Source of the DNA: Escherichia coli
GTDB lineage: Bacteria > Pseudomonadota > Gammaproteobacteria > Enterobacterales > Enterobacteriaceae
Assembly: GCF_030013205.1 (NCBI RefSeq)
Contig: NZ_CP122648.1
Length of the DNA stretch: 64,000 nucleotides
Direction: 5' to 3' (one strand)
The position numbers were made by a program, and so were the translations under genes. The notes under the pieces are model-generated. The model ran no database searches. It was given only the letters and a program-made list of their open reading frames with translations, and was not told where the DNA came from. Positions 43,272 through 53,635 of the stretch are shown here, one piece after another; within the stretch, counting starts at the first letter, position 1, and every line of letters begins with the position of its first letter.

Positions 43272-44466
43272 TATTTACCCCCTCACGATCTAAAGCGCGC
43301 AGCAGCATTCCTTTCGAAATGATGCCGACATACTGTTGGTCCTCATCGACCACGGGCACCGCACAGGGGGCCTGTCCGACATGAGAGAGCAACTCGCTAA
43401 GAGGCGTTTGTGCATCGACCGCTAACGGCGCATCAATCAGCGCCGCATCAAGACCTTGCTGCTGCGTTAACGCGGCTTTAAGCGAATCGATAGACACAGC
43501 GCCGACAAACTTATTACCGCGTTCGATGACGTAGCCATATTCGCGATCTTCATCCTGCAATAATTTCAGTGCCGAACGCGGGCCGAAGCCGGGGGTTTTA
43601 CGAATTAAGCCGTTCGGTGTACGACGGGCAATATCTTTCGCACTGAACACCTGGCTAATATCGACGCCACGGAAGAAGGTACGGACATAATCATTCGCCG
43701 GATTATTGAGAATTTCATCCGGTGTGCCGACCTGTACCACTTCACCATTTTGCATAATGGCAATTCGGTCGCCAATACGCATGGCTTCATCGAGATCGTG
43801 GGAAATAAAGACAATGGTGCGCTGATGTTTCGCCTGTAATTTTACCAGCTCATCCTGCATCTCGGTGCGAATTAATGGATCGAGTGCTGAGAAGGCTTCG
43901 TCCATTAATAATATATCCGGATTAATCGCTAACGCGCGGGCTAATCCCACACGTTGACGCATCCCGCCAGAGAGTTCATCCGGGTAGCTGTGGGCATAAT
44001 TTTCCAGCCCGACCTGACGCAGTGCATCAAGGGCTTTTTCCCGGCGTTCTTCGGCATTAATTCCGGCCAATTCCATACCGAATGCAGTATTGTCCAGCAC
44101 GGTCATATGCGGCATTAAGGCAAAGGACTGGAAGACCATCGCAATCTTTTTTCTGCGCACCTCACGGAGTTCGGCGTCGGATATTTTGGCAATATCCACA
44201 CCATCAATCAGCACTTGCCCGCGGGTGGGTTCAATCAGGCGATTGAGAAGGCGTACCATTGTGGATTTACCCGAACCGGATAATCCCATGATGACAAATA
44301 TCTCGCCTTCTTCAATGGCCAGACTGGCGTCTTTTACGCCAAGCGATAGCCCAGTTTTTTCCAGAATTTGTTCTTTTGAAAGTCCTTGTTCGATATATTT
44401 GAAAGCTCGCTGTGGATGCTCACCAAATATTTTATAAAGATTTTTAATTTCTAATTTAATTGCCAT
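43264..44466 (-). CDS. proV: Glycine betaine/proline ABC transporter ATPase ProV (with tandem CBS)
   Basis: 400 aa, Walker [18 protein letters not shown] signature. Confidence 0.93.
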
Positions 44467-44822
44467 GCAATAGAAAGATTCCTGTTATTTGTTTATGTCG
44501 ATACATTACCCAATGGAAATAGTCACTTTTTTCTACCCTAACATACTGAGAATCTGAGGCAACCCCTGATGGCAAATGTGGCATGAATATTGATGTGAGC
44601 AAATCGCCGGAATTTCCCATGATATAAGGGCTGAGAGCAAATCGAGAAAAGTTGATATTTTTTGTCAAAGATAGCAAAAAAACGCCTGAATATTGTGGTT
44701 TCAGGCGAATAATGCAACAGAGTGTCAGTGTAGATCACCACAAAATATTTGCGTGATAAAAAGCTATTTGGCGGGAATTATTTCCCTGCTGCGGGTAGTG
44801 ATATTTTTGAAAAATAACACCC

Positions 44823-45791
<969 letters not shown>

Positions 45792-47936
45792 TTAAAGTGC
45801 ACACGAGACGCAGCCTTCAATTTCAGTGCCTTCCAGCGCCATCTGACGCAGGCGGATGTAATAGAGCGTTTTGATACCTTTGCGCCAGGCGTAAATCTGC
45901 GCTTTGTTGATATCGCGAGTGGTGGCGGTATCGGGGAAAAACAGCGTCAGCGACAGCCCCTGATCGACATGGCGAGTCGCTTCCGCGTAAGTGTCGATGA
46001 TCTTTTCTGCGCCAATTTCGTAAGCGTCCTGATACAGCGCCAGATTCTCGTTAGTCATAAACGGGGCAGGGTAGTAAACGCGTCCTGTTTTGCCCTCTTT
46101 GCGTATCTCTACTTTCGCCACAATCGGATGAATACTCGACGTAGCATGGTTGATATAAGAGATAGAACCGGTTGGCGGCACCGCCTGAAGATTCTGGTTG
46201 TAAATGCCGTAGCGCATCACGTCGTCGCGCAGCTGCGCCCACATCTCACGGGTAGGTAACGTAATACCGCTACGGGTAAACAGTTCGCCAACTTTCGCCG
46301 TTTTCGGCTGCCAGTTCCCTTGCAGATATTGGCTAAAATATTCACCACTGGCATAGCGTGACTGTTTGAACCCGGCGAAGGTTTCACCGCGTTCGCGCGC
46401 CAGCAACATCGAGGTACGCAGTGCGTGCCAGGTGATGGTATAGAAATAGAGATTGGTGAAATCCAGTGCTTCCGGCGACCCATAAGCGATGCCTTCTCGC
46501 GCCAGATAGCCGTGTAAATTCATCTGCCCCAGTCCGATGGCGTGTGAGGCGGCATTTCCGGCTTCGATGGACGGCACGCTGCGGATATGACTCATATCTG
46601 ATACTGCCGTTAAACCGCGCACGGCAGTCTCTACCGTGCGGGCAAAGTCGGGGGAATCCATGGTGTGGGCAATATTCAACGAACCTAAATTGCAGGAAAT
46701 ATCATGGCCTGTGCGGGCATAGTCGAGATTCTCGTCATACTCTGAGGCGCTGTTAACCTGCAAAATTTCTGAGCAGAGATTGCTCATATTTATGCGCCCG
46801 GCGATAGGGTTAGCACGGTTAACCGTGTCTTCATACATGATGTAGGGATAGCCGGACTCAAACTGGATTTCTGCCAGTCGCTGGAAGAAATCACGGGCGT
46901 TGATGTATTTTTTGCGGATGCGTTCATTGGCAACCAGTTCGGCATAGTGTTCACTGATGGCGATATCAGCAAACGGCTTGCCATAAACCCGCTCAACGTC
47001 ATAAGGCGAAAACAGTGCCATCTGCGCATTCTCTTTTGCCAGATGGAAAGTGATATCCGGGATCACCACGCCCAGCGACAGTGTTTTAATGCGGATTTTC
47101 TCGTCGGCATTTTCCCGTTTCGTATCGAGAAAACGCAGAATATCGGGATGATGGGCATGTAAATAGACTGCCCCAGCCCCCTGACGCGCGCCGAGCTGGT
47201 TGGCATAGGAAAATGCGTCTTCCAGCATTTTCATCACCGGAATCACGCCAGATGATTGATTTTCAATACGTTTAATTGGCGCGCCCGCTTCTCGCAGATT
47301 CGACAGCAAAAATGCCACGCCGCCGCCGCGTTTCGACAGTTGCAGTGCGGAATTTACCGCCCGGCCAATCGACTCCATGTTGTCTTCAATACGCAGCAAA
47401 AAACAGGAAACCAGTTCGCCGCGCTGCTGCTTACCACAGTTGAGGAATGTCGGTGTTGCAGGCTGAAAGCGTCCTGACAGCATCTCATCGGTCAGTTGCG
47501 TCGCCAGTGTTTCATCGCCTTGTGCCAGCATCAGCGCCATCATCGTGACTCGATCGGCAAAATCTTCCAGATAACGCTTACCGTCGAATGTCTTCAACGT
47601 ATAGCTGGTGTAAAACTTCCATGCTCCGAGGAATGTCTGAAAACGAAAACCGCTGGCGTGTGCGTGGGCAAACAGCGTAATGACAAAATCGCGAGAGTAG
47701 CGGTTGAGGACGTTTTCATCATAGTAACCTTCGTTGACTAGCCAGTTCAGGCGCTGCTGCTGGCTACTGAAGGTCACACTGTTCGGACGCACATGTGTCG
47801 CCATAAAGGCGTCAACGGCCTGGCGATCTTTATCGAACTGAATGCGACCTGCGCTATCGTAAAGGTTAAGCATCGCATTCAGCGCGTGGTAATCCATCGT
47901 TTCCTGCGTCAGGCGTTCTGCGGTTGTCGTTGCCAA
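45792..47936 (-). CDS. nrdE: Class Ib ribonucleotide reductase alpha subunit NrdE
   Basis: 714 aa, C-terminal CxxC...CVSCAL. Confidence 0.93.
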
Positions 47937-48319
47937 AATTCGGTTACTCCTTTACGAACGTTTTCGATATCGCTTTGCGTACCCATGAGTTCAAAGCGGT
48001 ACAACCACGGCACGCCGCATTTCCGGGCTATCACATCTCCGGCGCGGCCATACGCCTCACCAAAGTTGCGATTACCCGAAGCAATAACGCCGCGCAGCAA
48101 CGCCCGGTTGTGCTCGTCGTTTAAAAAGCGAATGACCTGTCGTGGCACCGCGCCAGCCGTACCGCCGCCGCCGTAAGAGGGCACGATCAGGATGTAAGGC
48201 TCGTCTACCTGAATCCGTTCCCGCTCATTGAGCGGGATGCGCACCGCGGGCAGCCCTAAACGTTCGATAAAACGCTGCGTATTTTCGGAGCTGCTGGAAA
48301 AGTAGACGAGCTGGCTCAT
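47909..48319 (-). CDS. nrdI: Flavodoxin-like NrdI
   Basis: 136 aa, [14 protein letters not shown] start. Confidence 0.92.
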
Positions 48320-48561
48320 GCACTGGCAGCGTGTGGCGCTGGATGCAGACGATTGATCATGTCCGGGCGGAAACCAGACCAGCTAAGATCGCCTGCAATC
48401 ACAACCGGCAACTGACGAAAGCCCTGAGCACGCAGCGCTTCCGCCGCTTCAGGAACGCGATCGACATTAATCATTTCAAAATCAAAGCCCCGGTTTTCCA
48501 TCGCCCGTTTGGTGGCGTGGCACTGAACGCAATCGTTACGAGTGTAAATGGTAATGCGCAT
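48316..48561 (-). CDS. nrdH: Glutaredoxin-like NrdH
   Basis: 81 aa, CVQC redox motif. Confidence 0.92.
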
Positions 48562-48730
48562 GATTCGTATTTCCGTTTAAAATGAAGATACGGCGCGATG
48601 ATACGCGTCGGGTTGTCTCTCTGTTGATACAGAGATACTATATGTAGTTGAAAAAAGATTCAACCATACAAGATATGGGAATTTTAGATTGATTACGCCA
48701 CCGATGAATGGCTCAACGGGGTAGGGGATT

Positions 48731-48748
48731 TTGTGTTTTTTTGCCGGG
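48731..48748 (-). terminator. Rho-independent terminator (GCCGGGTATTCACCCGGC + A/T-rich tail on minus strand) downstream of the CMD-family gene
   Basis: Hairpin followed by AAAAAAACACAAAA on minus strand, just past the stop at 48770. Confidence 0.6.
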
Positions 48749-48769
48749 TGAATACCCGGCATCAAGAAG

Positions 48770-49201
48770 TTACATCCGCATGGAAACGGCCAGACGGTTA
48801 AAACAATTCATCAGCCCGATGGCAAACGTTAAGTCGCTGATCTCTGCTGCGCTGAAATGCTCAAGCAAAGGCTGATAAACCTCGTCTTCCGCATGGGTTC
48901 TGGCAATTTCGGTTACCGATTCCGCCCATGCCAGCGCCGCCCGCTCGCGTTCATCAAAATGATGGCTTACGCGCCAACCTGCCAGGGCATCCAGTTTGTG
49001 CTGTGGCACGCCGGATTTGCGCAATGCTTTGCTGTGCATCTCCAGACAAAATGCGCAGCCGTTGATTTGCGAGACGCGCAAATAAACTAACTCCATCAAC
49101 GTGGTATCCAGCGTGCTATTTTCCAGTGCCGTTTTGGCCTGCACTAGTGCGTTATACACTGCCGGGCTAAGTTCGTAGTAAGGCTGACGTAATGTAGTCA
49201 T
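48770..49201 (-). CDS. Carboxymuconolactone decarboxylase (CMD)/AhpD-like family protein
   Basis: 143 aa with NGCAFCLEMH (CxxC...H) signature typical of CMD/AhpD-like peroxidase-type proteins. Confidence 0.7.
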   Translation of the reverse strand: MTTLRQPYYELSPAVYNALVQAKTALENSTLDTTLMELVYLRVSQINGCAFCLEMHSKALRKSGVPQHKLDALAGWRVSHHFDERERAALAWAESVTEIARTHAEDEVYQPLLEHFSAAEISDLTFAIGLMNCFNRLAVSMRM

Positions 49202-49288
49202 ACAGTTTCTCCTCTTATTAACGCCCGCAATGTAGCACTATAATGGACTGCTAAAGAGAGCCATAAATTACCTAAAAAAGCAGACCAT

Positions 49289-50623
49289 ATGCCGCGCTAT
49301 CAGGATATCGCCCGTCAGTTAAAAACGGCTATTGAGCAAGGGGAACTGAAACCCGGCGCAAGGCTGCCTTCAAGTCGTACCTGGTCGCAGGAGCTGGGGG
49401 TGTCTCGATCCACTGTCGAAAATGCGTATGCTGAGCTGGTGGCGCAAGGATGGCTGATCAGGCGGGGACAGGCTGGCACATTTGTCAGTGAGCGGATATA
49501 TCCGCAACAATCTACTGTACAAGTTGTAGCTTTTGCCGGTGAAAGTCAGCAACCGTTGCCATTTCAAATGGGATTACCCGCACTCGATCTCTTTCCGCGA
49601 GAGCTGTGGGCGCGGGTGATGGGGCGTCGCCTTCGTACCCAGACGCGCTTTGATTTGGCGTTAGGCGATGTCTGCGGTGAGGTGGCGTTGCGCGAGGCAA
49701 TAGTTGATTACTTACGCGTTTCACGTGGGATTGATTGTCAGCCAGAGCAGGTCTTTATCACTCACGGTTATGCGGCCTCAATAGCTTTAATTCTGCACGC
49801 GCTGGCGAAACCGGGAAACGGGATGTGGATAGAAGATCCCGGCTTTCCACTGATTCGCCCGATTGTCACTCGCCATGATGTGGAAATTTTGCCTGTGCCG
49901 GTTGATGACAATGGACTGGATATCACAAGCGGAATACAAAATTATCCTGATGCGCGTTTTGCCCTGATAACACCAGCACACCAAAGTCCGCTGGGTGTGG
50001 CGCTCTCTTTAGCGCGCAGGCATCAGATACTGGAATGGGCAGATCGTAGTCAGGCATGGATTATTGAAGATGATTATGACAGTGAGTTTCGCTATCACGG
50101 TAAGCCGTTACCGGCGTTAAAAAGTCTCGACGCACCGCAGCGGGTAATTTATGCCGGAACATTCAGCAAAGCGCTATTTCCTGCATTGCGCTGTGCGTGG
50201 CTGGTGTTGCCAGTGAAGCAAATTGCACAATTCCGCCACCAGGCGTCACTGGCTCCATGTGCGGTACCTGTTCTATGGCAGAACACACTGGCAGACTTTC
50301 TTCGCGAGGGGCATTTCTGGCGGCATCTGAAGAAAATGCGTCAGCATTATGCTCAACGTCGGCAATGGATTGAGCAAGCGTTGACGCAGCAAGGATTTCA
50401 GGTTGTGCCGCAGAAAGGTGGTATCCAGATGGTGATCAGAATGATAGGCGATGATATTGCCCATGCGCGTAAAGCCAATGCTGCAGGCCTTGCGGTGCAG
50501 GCACTTAGCGACTGGCGTATCCGTTCAAGTGGGGAAGGTGGATTACTGCTCTCGTTTACTAATATCGTTAACGAAGGTATGGCGCGACAGGTAGCACAAC
50601 AATTACGTAAAGCCTTAAGCTAA
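49289..50623 (+). CDS. MocR/GabR-type transcriptional regulator (GntR HTH fused to PLP aminotransferase-like domain)
   Basis: 444 aa; N-terminal GntR-like HTH (LPSSRTWSQELGVSRSTVENAYAELVAQGWL), C-terminal fold-type I domain with SK PLP-lysine context (TFSKALFPALR); divergent from CMD gene. Confidence 0.75.
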   Translation: MPRYQDIARQLKTAIEQGELKPGARLPSSRTWSQELGVSRSTVENAYAELVAQGWLIRRGQAGTFVSERIYPQQSTVQVVAFAGESQQPLPFQMGLPALDLFPRELWARVMGRRLRTQTRFDLALGDVCGEVALREAIVDYLRVSRGIDCQPEQVFITHGYAASIALILHALAKPGNGMWIEDPGFPLIRPIVTRHDVEILPVPVDDNGLDITSGIQNYPDARFALITPAHQSPLGVALSLARRHQILEWADRSQAWIIEDDYDSEFRYHGKPLPALKSLDAPQRVIYAGTFSKALFPALRCAWLVLPVKQIAQFRHQASLAPCAVPVLWQNTLADFLREGHFWRHLKKMRQHYAQRRQWIEQALTQQGFQVVPQKGGIQMVIRMIGDDIAHARKANAAGLAVQALSDWRIRSSGEGGLLLSFTNIVNEGMARQVAQQLRKALS

Positions 50624-50626
50624 AAA

Positions 50627-50650
50627 ACCCCGAAGCCAGGCTTCGGGGTC
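50627..50650. terminator. Bidirectional terminator hairpin CCCCGAAGCC-N-GGCTTCGGGG between convergent MocR-like gene and ygaM
   Basis: Perfect GC-rich inverted repeat flanked by A/T runs. Confidence 0.65.
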
Positions 50651-50679
50651 AAAGACGCGTATTTATTATCATTATTGCA

Positions 50680-51021
50680 CTACGATTTGCGCATGCTTAA
50701 CAGTGCGCCGATAAAAATACCAACCGCAGCTGCTGTACCCACGCTACACCAGGGTCTTTCACGAACAAAAGAATCCGCGCAGCCAACGGCATCGCGCGCG
50801 GCTTGCTGGACGCGAGTACGACCATGCATTCGCGCTCTGGTTTCTTTCAGTAGAGCCTGCGCTTTACTACGAGCGGCTTCGGCTTCCCCTTTGGCGTCGC
50901 TGCCCCAGGACTTCAATACAGATTCGAGGCTGTCAGCTAATTGATTGACATCATTCTGGATATCCTGCACGCCATCATCGACGTCGTTGCGGTTCGGTCG
51001 GTTAAACATATGATCCCCCAT
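50680..51021 (-). CDS. ygaM: DUF883 (ElaB/YqjD-like) ribosome-associated membrane-anchored protein YgaM
   Basis: C-terminal TM anchor AAAVGIFIGALL; real start may be the internal MFNRPNRND (51009). Confidence 0.85.
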   Translation of the reverse strand: MGDHMFNRPNRNDVDDGVQDIQNDVNQLADSLESVLKSWGSDAKGEAEAARSKAQALLKETRARMHGRTRVQQAARDAVGCADSFVRERPWCSVGTAAAVGIFIGALLSMRKS

Positions 51022-51160
51022 TAGAATTCGATGTAATTTTCAGTGTAGACCATAATTTTCTTAACTGAGGTTCATCGCGGCTTTATGGACTTTTCTGAAA
51101 GCGTTGTGAATGCGCAATCAGGTAAGGTAGGCCCGCGGTTGATAATAACGAGGATCAAAT

Positions 51161-51505
51161 ATGTATTTACGACCAGACGAGGTGGCGCGCGTACTTGAAA
51201 AAGTCGGTTTTACTGTCGATGTGGTAACCCAGAAAGCGTATGGTTACCGCCGTGGGGAAAATTATGTCTATGTTAATCGTGAAGCACGAATGGGACGTAC
51301 CGCCCTGGTAATTCATCCAACATTAAAAGAACGTAGTTCGACACTGGCTGAACCCGCTTCCGATATTAAAACTTGCGATCATTACCAGCAATTTCCGCTC
51401 TATTTAGCGGGTGAACGTCATGAGCATTACGGTATCCCCCATGGCTTTAGTTCGCGTGTTGCGCTTGAACGTTATTTGAATGGTTTATTTGGCGAAGCCA
51501 GTTAA
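51161..51505 (+). CDS. ygaC: Uncharacterized protein YgaC
   Basis: 114 aa, conserved position. Confidence 0.8.
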
Positions 51506-51541
51506 AGACGCGACTGGCGATGCCAGTCGCGAAAAGAAGGC

Positions 51542-51991
51542 TCAGGCTTTTACCTGCTGGTAACGGCTGACTTTAAACAGTCGGCGGCAATAATCGAGGA
51601 AGTAGCCATAAACCGCCCCCATCAACATCGAAACAACGATGTTTGAACTGACCGCCGCCATAATCTGATGCCAGTCTGCGCCCACCACTAACAAGATCGC
51701 CACATACACCGGTGACTGGAACGTCACATAAGCCATGATATCCGCCAGATTTTTTATCCAGCCCGACGGGCTAACTTTGCGTGCTGCGCGCATAAACAGA
51801 TCGCGGTACATACCGTATGGCCATGCAATTAAGATGTTCACCGGAATCGCTACCAATCTGGAATAAAAAGACTGTTCGAAGCTCATTCCGGAGAGGAAAA
51901 CTTCAATACACATGTTCACGACAGAACAGTAAACAACCATCGCGAACGTATCTGCAACTGCATGACGCAAGCGTGACTGCGGTGAGAACAT
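51542..51991 (-). CDS. alaE: L-alanine exporter AlaE
   Basis: 149 aa from [18 protein letters not shown]; ORF-track start 52102 is an extension. Confidence 0.85.
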
Positions 51992-52659
51992 GCTAATGCT
52001 CCTTAATAAAAGCGTAATGGGATGTGAATGGAGATGAAAGCAGTGGATCTCATTGCCATCTGCATTTTCGCATAGCGTATATCGCTGGCTATGACTAATC
52101 AATTAGTGAAAAATTTTTATTTAAACTGTTTTTGTAGATAAAATATTCCGTAACGGCGCGTTTTTTGTACATTGTGGATTTTTACATGCCGATATGGTTT
52201 ATTTTTAATTAAATCAATTAGATATGATTCTGCCTTTAATTACACTAATGAAAGTTTGGGGGTGAGGTAACGCTATAAGCGTAGAGAATTCGGTGTATGT
52301 CGTGACCGGGTCATTTTCAGCATTTTTTATGCCAGAAAATGTACATTGACAGCAGAAAGCACCAGTGAGGGGGGGGTTCCATTTATTCGGTTAAATTGCA
52401 TTTTTATTCATTTTTGTTTTGTCAGGCTTGCGGAATTAGCGAGCAGAGAGCGCCGCTCTGCTCACAAATAACCTAAATTACTCATCAAAATGGCTAATAT
52501 ATAATCTTGAAATTATTCTGAGAGTTTCAGAAAATAACAGCTGAAATAATCTCGCGCAGGACTGTAAATAGATTAAATTTTGTGGAAATATAATAAGTGA
52601 TCGCTTACACTACGCGACGAAATACTTTTTTGTTTTGGCGTTAAAAGGTTTTCTTTATT

Positions 52660-53064
52660 ATGTCCGTAATGTTACAAAGTTTAAATAACATTCGCACCCT
52701 CCGTGCGATGGCTCGCGAATTCTCCATTGACGTTCTTGAAGAAATGCTCGAAAAATTCAGGGTTGTCACTAAAGAAAGACGTGAAGAAGAAGAACAGCAG
52801 CAGCGTGAACTGGCTGAGCGTCAGGAAAAAATTAGCACCTGGCTGGAGCTGATGAAAGCTGACGGAATTAACCCGGAAGAGTTATTGGGTAATAGCTCTG
52901 CTGCTGCACCACGCGCTGGTAAAAAACGCCAGCCGCGTCCGGCGAAATATAAATTCACCGATGTTAACGGTGAAACTAAAACCTGGACCGGTCAGGGTCG
53001 TACACCGAAGCCAATCGCTCAGGCGCTGGCAGAAGGTAAATCTCTCGACGATTTCCTGATCTAA
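52660..53064 (+). CDS. stpA: H-NS paralog nucleoid protein StpA
   Basis: 134 aa; C-terminal DNA-binding TWTGQGRTP. Confidence 0.93.
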
Positions 53065-53110
53065 TTACTGAGGCCGGATGCCGCCGCTATGGCGCGTCCG
53101 GCGTCGCTTC

Positions 53111-53635
53111 TCAAGCTCGTTGGTTCCACGGCATCTTACCTAACAACCTTGCCATCCCACAAAAACCGCTAATTCCTGCAAACAGTAACCCGGCACCAAC
53201 AAAGCCGCTTAATAAGAAGAAACCGCTATTTACGGTATAACCTAGTATAACTCCGATTAATATTAAACCACCCGCAGCGATCTGCACCTGGCGCATTAAC
53301 GGCAAGGGTTGAGATTTATTTACCGCTACTGGTAATCCTGCTTTTTTCCAGCCATCAATCCCATCTTCGAGTAAAAAGATTTCTGCGGGGGCGGCAATCG
53401 CTGCTAATTTATCGGCGTTATTACTGGTGCGTTTACCTGCCTGGCAGTGGAATATAATTTGCTCGTGACGTAATTTAGCCGGAAGACCTGACTGTTCCAG
53501 CACGGATAATGGAGCCAGATCTGCTTCAGGAATATGCTCACGAAGATATTCATCAGCGTCACGAATATCGATTAACTTTGCGCCGCGTGCGATTAATTCT
53601 TGTGCATCATGCGGCGAAATGGTTGTCAAAGCCAT
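53111..53635 (-). CDS. ygaP: Membrane-anchored rhodanese (thiosulfate sulfurtransferase) YgaP
   Basis: 174 aa, rhodanese active-site CQAGKR and C-terminal TM helices. Confidence 0.85.

Follow-up and report, generated by a model that had tools for sequence, protein, structure and literature searches.

Between nrdH and ygaM, the Escherichia coli DNA analysed here (a stretch of 64,000 nucleotides, called the window below) carries two divergently oriented genes. This raises the questions of what the two proteins are, whether one controls the gene of the other, and how the pair came to occupy this site. An earlier note, made from the letters alone, had described a 143-aa protein of the carboxymuconolactone decarboxylase (CMD)/AhpD family and a 444-aa MocR-type regulator. 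Both open reading frames were confirmed, with 87 bp between the start codons (Table 1). The neighbours of the regulator in the window are the CMD gene, nrdHIEF and ygaM. Purifying selection acts on both genes (dN/dS 0.03–0.11), and no Rfam match to a non-coding RNA was found in the spacers within 44000–54000. The regulator and the AhpD-like protein form a real but ordinary two-gene unit.

Table 1. Sequence features of the nrdH–ygaM interval (positions in the window).
Feature	Position	Strand	Basis
CMD/AhpD-like CDS, COG2128 type, 143 aa	48770..49201	minus	ORF list, Pfam CMD
MocR-type regulator CDS, 444 aa	49289..50623	plus	ORF list, profile searches
Divergent intergenic region, 87 bp, with both putative promoters and the predicted operator	49202..49288		sequence reading, alignment
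Shine-Dalgarno GGAGAA, 5 nt upstream of the CMD ATG	49207..49212	minus	sequence reading
Putative -10-like hexamer TATAGT, CMD gene	49236-49241	minus	alignment of 25 loci
Putative -10-like hexamer TATAAT, regulator gene	49239-49244	plus	alignment of 25 loci
Predicted operator box 1, ATGGACTGC, inverted copy of box 3	49243..49251	plus	alignment, pattern scan
Predicted operator box 2, AGAGCCAT, direct partial copy of box 3	49257..49264	plus	alignment
Predicted operator box 3, GCAGACCAT, abuts the regulator start codon	49280..49288	plus	alignment
Hairpin GCCGGGT-GAAT-ACCCGGC downstream of CMD	48731..48748		folding, terminator scan
Intrinsic terminator of ygaM, directly 3' of the regulator gene	50626..50650	minus	folding, terminator scan
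Segment of ~1.88 kb missing from K-12-type genomes	48739..50621		K-12 spacer aligned to window

Searches with Pfam, NCBIfam and solved-structure profiles agree with both family assignments. The 444-aa protein contains a GntR winged helix-turn-helix (PF00392, E=1.4e-17, residues 4–66) and a fold-type-I aminotransferase-like domain (Aminotran_1_2, PF00155, E=1.8e-25), in which K294 is the predicted pyridoxal phosphate (PLP) lysine. All 79 homologs compared have D261, D262, Y263, S293 and K294, and R301 is found in 75 of these; N425 is invariant in the regulator's homolog group. The best solved relatives are PdxR from Bacillus clausii (7pq9, 1e-62) and GabR from B. subtilis (6e-55). FSK294 is aligned to FSK(312) of GabR, and the EDDYD motif is identical in GabR and PdxR. 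By its domains, its cofactor residues and the repeated motifs of its predicted operator, the protein is a MocR-subfamily transcription factor, for which PLP binding is predicted. A GabR-like function was rejected. The score with the GabR HMM, 264 bits, is below the cutoff of 600, there is no gabT or gabD near the window regulator, and in place of GabR Arg207 and Arg430, which we take to be the arginines that bind the GABA carboxylate, the alignment has L188 and D408.

The 143-aa protein matches Pfam CMD (PF02627, E=5e-21) and scores 54.9 bits with the AhpD core-domain model TIGR00778 (cutoff 27.8). The motif NGCAFCLEMH, to which attention had been drawn before, spans residues 47–56. The catalytic-type residues are E37, C49, F51, C52 and H56, and among 65 MocR-linked homologs R42, Q45, N47, G48, C49, C52, H56 and W76 are invariant. 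The CMD fold, the CxxC...H motif and the acidic residue upstream of it place the protein in the AhpD-like/CMD superfamily. An identity as PcaC (gamma-carboxymuconolactone decarboxylase) was considered and rejected: the protein has a redox CxxC site, none of its six NCBIfam matches is a PcaC model, and no pca genes lie nearby. The AhpD-type CxxC...H site and the missing pca genes also leave the earlier suggestion of an aromatic lactone as ligand unsupported.

The association of the two genes extends well beyond the window. Neighbours were counted by targeted tblastn at 80 loci with a homologous MocR gene from Enterobacterales, Pseudomonas, and beta- and alpha-proteobacteria. At 66 of them, the flank includes a CMD homolog. 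The other conserved neighbours are an AzoR-like flavoprotein (32/80) and a GNAT acetyltransferase (23/80), each often in one operon with CMD, and a cupin. Most likely, the regulator controls the adjacent AhpD-like gene. This had been proposed in the earlier note from the habits of MocR proteins, and the proposal is now backed by the linkage, by a conserved intergenic operator predicted from the sequence and by a published regulon. The regulator–target link is already known as an in-silico regulon (PMC5320631). In the searchable literature we found no experimental study, in any organism, of a MocR regulator paired with an AhpD/CMD gene or of the orthologous locus tags.

The predicted operator (49243-49288, 46 bp) consists of three boxes at fixed spacing next to the presumably regulated gene, the kind of repeated motif that marks MocR sites; binding is predicted from its sequence. 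Across 25 Enterobacterales loci the boxes are invariant and the spacers variable, with ATGG and CT retained in every box 1, GCCAT in every box 2 and AG.CCAT in every box 3. A run of AAAAAA separates boxes 2 and 3. In 24 Enterobacterales loci the exact pattern was found once each, without exception between the two genes. Nothing else on the plus strand of the window matches it without a mismatch; by chance, 0.23 matches with three or fewer mismatches would be expected there. In a position-scored scan, 53 of the 80 MocR loci retained at least 12 of the 14 core positions, and the 46-bp architecture is recognisable across Proteobacteria. In other taxa the CCATG of box 3 is often found ~90 bp upstream of the start of the tblastn match, and an in-frame ATG at this position could be the start codon.

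The promoters are less distinct. The two -10-like hexamers overlap within 49236..49244, in a block, GCACTATAAT, that Enterobacterales have kept. Relative to TATAGT, box 2 takes the place of the -35 element in the putative CMD promoter. A consensus scan of the 87-bp region called no sigma-70 promoter, and the -35 hexamers are weak. The candidate promoter elements are weaker matches, then, picked out by conservation alone. Since the scan calls neither promoter, the start sites and the logic of activation versus repression are predictions.

Taken together, we consider it probable that the locus is a conserved regulator–target pair, made up of a MocR regulator, a three-box operator, an AhpD-like thiol-redox target and a switch that follows the state of PLP. 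DNA binding and the direction of regulation are what we infer here. A dimer of the regulator would bind the 46-bp operator, with which both divergent promoters overlap. Every box is located either at the predicted start site of the regulator gene or downstream of this site; consequently, binding should repress this gene. Because the weak CMD promoter has box 2 at its -35 position and box 3 farther upstream, the regulator on these two direct boxes should switch the CMD gene on. On the inverted boxes 1 and 3 it would wrap and close the region. Presumably, the chemical state of PLP in the sensor pocket sets this switch, as it does in PdxR from B. clausii and GabR from B. subtilis. The AhpD-like 143-aa protein may carry out a thiol-dependent reduction by means of its C49-x-x-C52 dithiol, together with E37 and H56; the reaction might be peroxidase-like or act on disulfides or electrophiles.

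The additional neighbours in other taxa allow a bolder reading, which we regard as possible but rather doubtful. Instead of sensing a nutrient, the regulator would use its PLP as a chemical trap for toxicants and would switch on a detoxification set, so that the locus would represent a new and widespread stress regulon. The trapped compounds, carbonyl-reactive or redox-active, may be arylamines, hydroxylamines, hydrazines, quinone-imines or oxidants. The full set would comprise the GNAT acetyltransferase, an FMN-dependent azo/quinone reductase and the CxxC AhpD-like reductase, of which the Enterobacteriaceae would retain only the last. A comparable trap is the proposed sensing of cyanide by Pseudomonas MpaR through a PLP-cyanohydrin. 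If this reading is true, the sensor chemistry of the stress regulon would be covalent modification of a cofactor.

Returning to the regulator–target pair, a rival assignment is that of a true PdxR that senses PLP and controls B6 synthesis or salvage, with CMD as an incidental neighbour. Newer RefSeq annotation uses this name, and one record (H4) has the gene as pdxR, B. clausii PdxR is the best solved relative, and the exchange of the two GabR carboxylate arginines for L188 and D408 would fit PLP itself as the ligand. Furthermore, the NCBIfam PdxR equivalog model NF052282 gives the regulator 408 bits with a cutoff of 320. However, every CMD-linked MocR tested passes this model as well (416–423 bits), so its cutoff is permissive and not diagnostic, and for the CMD-linked MocR from Pseudomonas the rhizopine MocR model even gives the better score. 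No B6 gene adjoins the regulator in any locus inspected, and neither pdxST nor another B6 gene is adjacent at the window locus; the conserved neighbours are CMD, the AzoR-like protein and GNAT. PLP synthesis in E. coli follows the PdxA/PdxJ route, and the species is not known to have pdxST. The published grouping sets the probable orthologs of our regulator in a function-unassigned group apart from PdxR, PdxQ and PdxW (PMC5320631). A PdxR function is therefore improbable, and the RefSeq name "PdxR" for regulators of this type is probably an over-call.

The pair was found in 1276 of 5426 complete E. coli genomes. It is absent from BL21 and from a K-12-type genome (L001), in which nrdH and ygaM adjoin at a distance of 247 bp, as the earlier note had given for K-12. 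One identical deletion junction is common to 4015 of the 5426 genomes (74%). Given this clean deletion and the truncation of some alleles, the module is dispensable. An internal deletion of 570 bp was seen in one genome (H8), protein clusters are truncated at 359 aa (P0046) and ~413 aa (P0017/P0018), and one Enterobacter regulator (L081) is split over two reading frames. These lesions, together with a loss from most genomes that has no known consequence, might suggest that the pair in E. coli is a decaying remnant without current function. This is unlikely, since both reading frames are intact in the window with all catalytic and PLP residues present, the operator is perfect there, and dN/dS is 0.06–0.11 even among E. 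coli alleles.

The distribution also bears on the origin of the pair and speaks against an extra insertion at the nrdH–ygaM junction. Its position and orientation between these genes are kept in E. albertii, three Citrobacter species, Pseudocitrobacter and Cedecea, and also in Pseudescherichia, Shimwellia, Pluralibacter and Rahnella. Because the same site is occupied in other enteric genera, the pair is ancestral at nrdH–ygaM in enteric bacteria and was deleted, in a single event, in K-12-like E. coli. A horizontally acquired islet in some E. coli lineages would account for its absence from K-12, BL21 and three quarters of the complete genomes, and for an unusually high divergence of its alleles within the species (comparing the window with O157:H7, dS is 0.41 for the regulator and 0.10 for nrdI). 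Such an acquisition is nevertheless highly improbable in view of the shared synteny and the single junction in 4015 genomes. Moreover, the GC content of the pair (0.51–0.54) is similar to that of the flanks, and neither direct repeats nor mobile-element remnants were found around it. Insertion by a mobile element was rejected in view of the synteny, the GC content and the missing repeats.

Both genes had further been described as bounded by clean terminator hairpins. The two hairpins do fold where they had been placed, with energies of -15 kcal/mol downstream of CMD and about -19 to -22 kcal/mol next to the regulator, but terminator scan and folding led us to reject them as canonical terminators of CMD and the regulator. 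In the CMD-sense RNA the first hairpin is followed by AAAAAAA instead of a U-run, and the scan called it on neither strand. The second has a T-run on the minus strand only; hence, it is the terminator of ygaM. It is kept in K-12, where the regulator is absent. That CMD works with nrdHIEF, for example as redox partner of NrdH or of the class Ib ribonucleotide reductase, is very unlikely: although in at least 20 enterobacterial loci its gene is the next one upstream of nrdH in the same orientation, no canonical terminator separates the two genes, and both products are CxxC redox proteins, nrdHIEF has its own promoter within the 208-bp spacer and persists without the module in K-12, and the CMD–MocR pair is never near nrd genes outside Enterobacterales.

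The practical value of these results is modest. They correct a spreading annotation, as the "PdxR" names on these proteins stem from a permissive model cutoff. They also show that the nrdH–ygaM difference between K-12 and strains of the APEC O1 type or O157:H7 is a single old deletion rather than a pathogen-specific gain. The precise 46-bp predicted operator and the box-by-box model are directly testable. For work on the signal and the AhpD-like substrate of the very widespread MocR–AhpD-like regulon, with or without AzoR-like and GNAT members, E. coli would be a convenient host, as some of its strains carry the module and others do not.

Among known systems, GabR from B. subtilis shares with our regulator the MocR architecture and the PLP lysine motif FSK. 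GabR represses its own gene and activates the divergent gabTD operon in an effector-dependent manner, and its binding site overlaps the -35 region of the target promoter. The pdxR–pdxST locus of B. clausii resembles the window in its divergent layout, its operator of ~48 bp and the A-tract between motifs. It differs in the box sequences and in the target, which is PLP synthase instead of CMD; its ligand is PLP. Within the 48-bp PdxR operator, which lies between the divergent genes, two motifs are direct and one is inverted; the holo (PLP-bound) protein prefers the inverted pair (PMC10450172).

For the 143-aa protein, the closest solved structures are PA0269 from Pseudomonas aeruginosa (2ijc/2o4d/7xw1) and Atu0492 from Agrobacterium (2gmy), with E values of ~1e-30 to 1e-31. 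Both are about equal in length to it and align end to end (E ~1e-31). PA0269 is 41% identical and has the same E...CxxC...H relay: its E36/C48/C51/H55 align with E37/C49/C52/H56, whereas its Tyr50 is replaced by Phe51. A weak, NEM-sensitive peroxidase activity with reduction of H2O2 in vitro was reported for PA0269 (PMC3141380); its physiological reaction may be another. With AhpD from Mycobacterium tuberculosis the protein shares the CxxC...H catalytic core domain, but the full-length model TIGR00777 gives it 30.9 bits against a cutoff of 191.95. Since, in addition, no ahpC partner gene is present in the neighbourhood of the pair, a bona fide AhpD was rejected. Proteins of the PA0269 type have their catalytic hairpin in the N-terminal part, whereas true AhpD has it in the C-terminal part (PMC3141380).

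PA0269 is likewise MocR-linked. In the work of Suvorova and Rodionov (2016), it is the predicted target of PA0268, which belongs to a MocR ortholog group other than that of our regulator (PMC5320631). The same study gives COG2128, AcpD and GNAT as predicted targets of PFL_2191 from Pseudomonas, matching the neighbour set counted here (PMC5320631). The probable counterpart described there is the in-silico regulog Spro_3719 - Enterobacteriales with the target COG2128, whose members are STM2803, CKO_04020, a gene of Klebsiella pneumoniae MGH 78578, Spro_3719 and ECA2654 (PMC5320631). Our regulator has full-length matches of 75–78% identity among the proteins of Citrobacter koseri, C. amalonaticus and Salmonella, and the nrdH synteny of the pair holds in Citrobacter. 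For Salmonella, nrdH is presumably STM2805, which puts STM2803 two locus-tag numbers below it. The regulog lists no E. coli member because K-12, which is without the pair, was the strain analysed; in regulator subfamily, COG2128 target class and taxon it corresponds to the pair in the window.

The earlier note had described a 143-aa CMD/AhpD-like protein and a divergently transcribed 444-aa MocR-type regulator between nrdH and ygaM. The ORF list and the sequence agree with this description: the two start codons are 87 bp apart, and the motif NGCAFCLEMH is found at residues 47–56 of the small protein. The adjacency of nrdH and ygaM given for K-12 also holds, as both are 247 bp apart, without either gene, in the K-12-type genome locus (L001). 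The two bounding hairpins do fold, but they are not clean terminators of the CMD and regulator genes as had been claimed. In CMD-sense RNA the first is followed by AAAAAAA, and the terminator scan left it uncalled on both strands. The second carries its T-run on the minus strand and is therefore the terminator of ygaM, which is kept in K-12.

Features of the CMD–regulator region (window positions)
Feature	Position	Strand	Basis or remark
nrdH	48316-48561	minus	left neighbour of the pair
Hairpin downstream of CMD gene	48731-48748		folding
CMD/AhpD-like protein ORF, 143 aa	48770-49201	minus	ORF list and sequence
TATAGT	49236-49241	minus	overlaps TATAAT
TATAAT	49239-49244	plus	inside GCACTATAAT block
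Box 1, ATGGACTGC	49243-49251		inverted copy of box 3
Box 2, AGAGCCAT	49257-49264		partial direct copy of box 3
Box 3, GCAGACCAT	49280-49288		abuts regulator ATG
MocR-type regulator ORF, 444 aa	49289-50623	plus	ORF list and sequence
ygaM terminator hairpin	50626-50650		folding and terminator scan
ygaM	50680-51021	minus	right neighbour of the pair

Profile searches placed both proteins in the families originally assigned. The CMD protein matches Pfam CMD (5e-21) and, with 54.9 bits, clears the cutoff of 27.8 set for the AhpD core-domain model TIGR00778; it fails the full AhpD model (30.9, cutoff 191.95) and matches no PcaC model. Its nearest solved structures, PA0269 from P. aeruginosa (41% identity) and Atu0492 from Agrobacterium, align end to end (E ~1e-31). 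The proton relay of PA0269, whose H2O2 reduction is weak and NEM-sensitive, consists of Glu36, Cys48, Tyr50, Cys51 and His55 (PMC3141380); the CMD protein has E37, C49, F51, C52 and H56. Residues R42, Q45, N47, G48, C49, C52, H56 and W76 are invariant in 65 MocR-adjacent CMD homologs. For the regulator, Pfam matched a GntR domain (residues 4–66) and an aminotransferase class I/II domain. Among solved structures it comes closest to B. clausii PdxR (1e-62) and B. subtilis GabR (6e-55), and its FSK lysine and EDDYD motifs line up with theirs. D261, D262, Y263, S293 and K294 are invariant in 79 homologs, and R301 is kept in 75 of them. In GabR, Arg207 and Arg430 grip the GABA carboxylate; the aligned residues of the regulator are L188 and D408, the latter variable.

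The 2.1-kb query is covered to 80% or more in 1276 of 5426 complete E. coli genomes, including APEC O1 (99.5% identical) and O157:H7 (92%), while K-12 and BL21 match in the flanks only. The K-12 spacer aligns to 48562-48738 and 50622-50679, hence ~1.88 kb are missing. Since a 66-bp probe over this junction is present in 4015 of the complete genomes, a single deletion allele accounts for most module-negative genomes. In a tblastn synteny survey with one genome per species, the pair lies between nrdH-nrdI and ygaM in E. albertii, Pseudocitrobacter, Cedecea, Pseudescherichia, Shimwellia, Pluralibacter, several Enterobacteriaceae and Rahnella; in three Citrobacter species it adjoins nrdH-nrdI, and ygaM was undetected there. 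The GC content resembles that of the flanks and no bounding repeats were found around the module. Thus, the module is ancestral and the K-12 state is a loss, not a strain-specific gain elsewhere. Both genes are under purifying selection (dN/dS 0.03–0.11, seven pairwise comparisons).

Several side observations were also made. At the K-12 junction (L001:3176-3191), 15 of the 16 nt ATTCACCAGGCAAAAA equal the reverse complement of a hairpin half plus T-run in the window (48724-48748), which hints at deletion through template switching at the palindrome. Distal upstream of nrdH, module-positive and K-12-type alleles differ strongly at 48673-48715, within near-identical flanks. Presumably the nrdHIEF promoter has its distal NrdR box here, and the two allele types might then regulate the operon differently. 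Compared with O157:H7 (L002), the regulator and ygaM show synonymous divergences of 0.41 and 0.33, unusually high for alleles of one species, versus 0.10 for nrdI and the CMD gene; this suggests an old polymorphism or recombination import from some diverged lineage of Escherichia. O157:H7 also has ~95 additional bp (L002:5089-5185) between the shared hairpin and ygaM, absent from the window and K-12, that look like a REP/BIME-type repeat. Decay was seen as a ~570-bp internal deletion in E. coli T309.Ta3, an Enterobacter regulator split over two reading frames (L081:5001-6306) and truncated regulator clusters of 359–414 aa (P0046, P0017, P0018). Upstream of stpA, 51750-52750 is AT-rich (GC 0.37–0.39 vs ~0.51 around).

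The regulator is now called PdxR in some RefSeq records, because it passes the NCBIfam PdxR equivalog NF052282 (408 bits, cutoff 320). CMD-linked regulators of Pseudomonas, Bradyrhizobium and Citrobacter pass as well (416–423 bits), and for that of Pseudomonas a rhizopine MocR model outscores the PdxR model. Since, in addition, no conserved B6-gene neighbour was found across the loci inspected, the name is probably an over-call, although PLP itself is a possible ligand. With so low a cutoff, all CMD-linked MocRs tested would be named PdxR (408–423 bits), which probably leads to systematic over-annotation.

At 66 of the 80 homologous MocR loci, the fetched flank includes a CMD homolog, which is either a divergently transcribed direct neighbour or a downstream gene of the same orientation. 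The divergent operon of Pseudomonas and many beta-proteobacteria reads GNAT acetyltransferase, AzoR-like FMN-dependent NADH oxidoreductase, CMD; among all 80 loci an AzoR-like gene accompanies 32, GNAT 23 and a cupin 8. Because an azo/quinone reductase and an acetyltransferase co-occur, one may speculate that the signal or substrate is not a nutrient but a toxic amine, quinone or oxidant. Suvorova and Rodionov (2016) reconstructed MocR regulons in ~250 genomes (PMC5320631). Their group 'Spro_3719 - Enterobacteriales' (Citrobacter koseri CKO_04020, Salmonella STM2803, a Klebsiella pneumoniae MGH 78578 gene, Serratia Spro_3719, Pectobacterium ECA2654) has COG2128, the alkylhydroperoxidase AhpD family/CMD, as its only target. 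Pseudomonas PFL_2191 targets COG2128, COG1182 (AcpD) and PF00583 (GNAT), and a separate group, PA0268, targets COG2128, here taken to be the PA0269 family; the function given is nothing beyond 'reduction/oxidation processes' (PMC5320631). The E. coli copy is not among the group members, and our literature search found no experimental study of the pair. As a prediction, the regulator–target idea has thus been published before. The interpretation in the earlier note, a regulator that would control the divergent gene, is essentially right, and the pair belongs to a predicted, widespread regulon, which will not surprise the specialist.

The locus tags z3974 and STM2804 may both stand for the CMD gene. 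Salicylidene-acylhydrazide beads captured the z3974 protein from an O157 lysate, along with Tpx and WrbA, but its Far-Western signal was absent or very weak (PMC3191033). Salmonella competitions in mice used STM2804::cat, near stpA, as a linked marker (PMC3723669).

Alignment of the intergenic regions revealed three invariant boxes with fixed spacing within 46 bp, immediately preceded by the conserved block GCACTATAAT. Each of 24 Enterobacterales loci has one exact copy of the pattern, invariably in this intergenic region, and the 64-kb window contains no other match. By position-scored scan, the architecture (rough consensus ATGGCCTA-N9-GGCCAA-N17-TAGGCCAT) was also detected in most loci of Pseudomonas and of beta- and alpha-proteobacteria, as well as in one MAG of the Bacillota. 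Given a 17-bp spacer, box 2 takes the -35 position of the putative minus-strand CMD promoter. None of the three boxes precedes the predicted plus-strand start. A consensus promoter scan called neither intergenic promoter because the -35 hexamers are weak; this would fit an activator-dependent CMD promoter.

The three-box site has the same layout as the B. clausii PdxR operator, including the A-tract between boxes 2 and 3. There, 48 bp of the pdxR-pdxST intergenic region contain one inverted and two direct motifs; apo PdxR, without PLP, binds all motifs with similar affinity, and holo PdxR, with PLP bound, favours the inverted pair and bends the DNA round the dimer, so that activation stops (PMC10450172). 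From this likeness we propose that the regulator represses its own gene, would activate the CMD gene when bound to boxes 2 and 3, and would close the region when bound to boxes 1 and 3, with the state of its PLP pocket deciding between the two.
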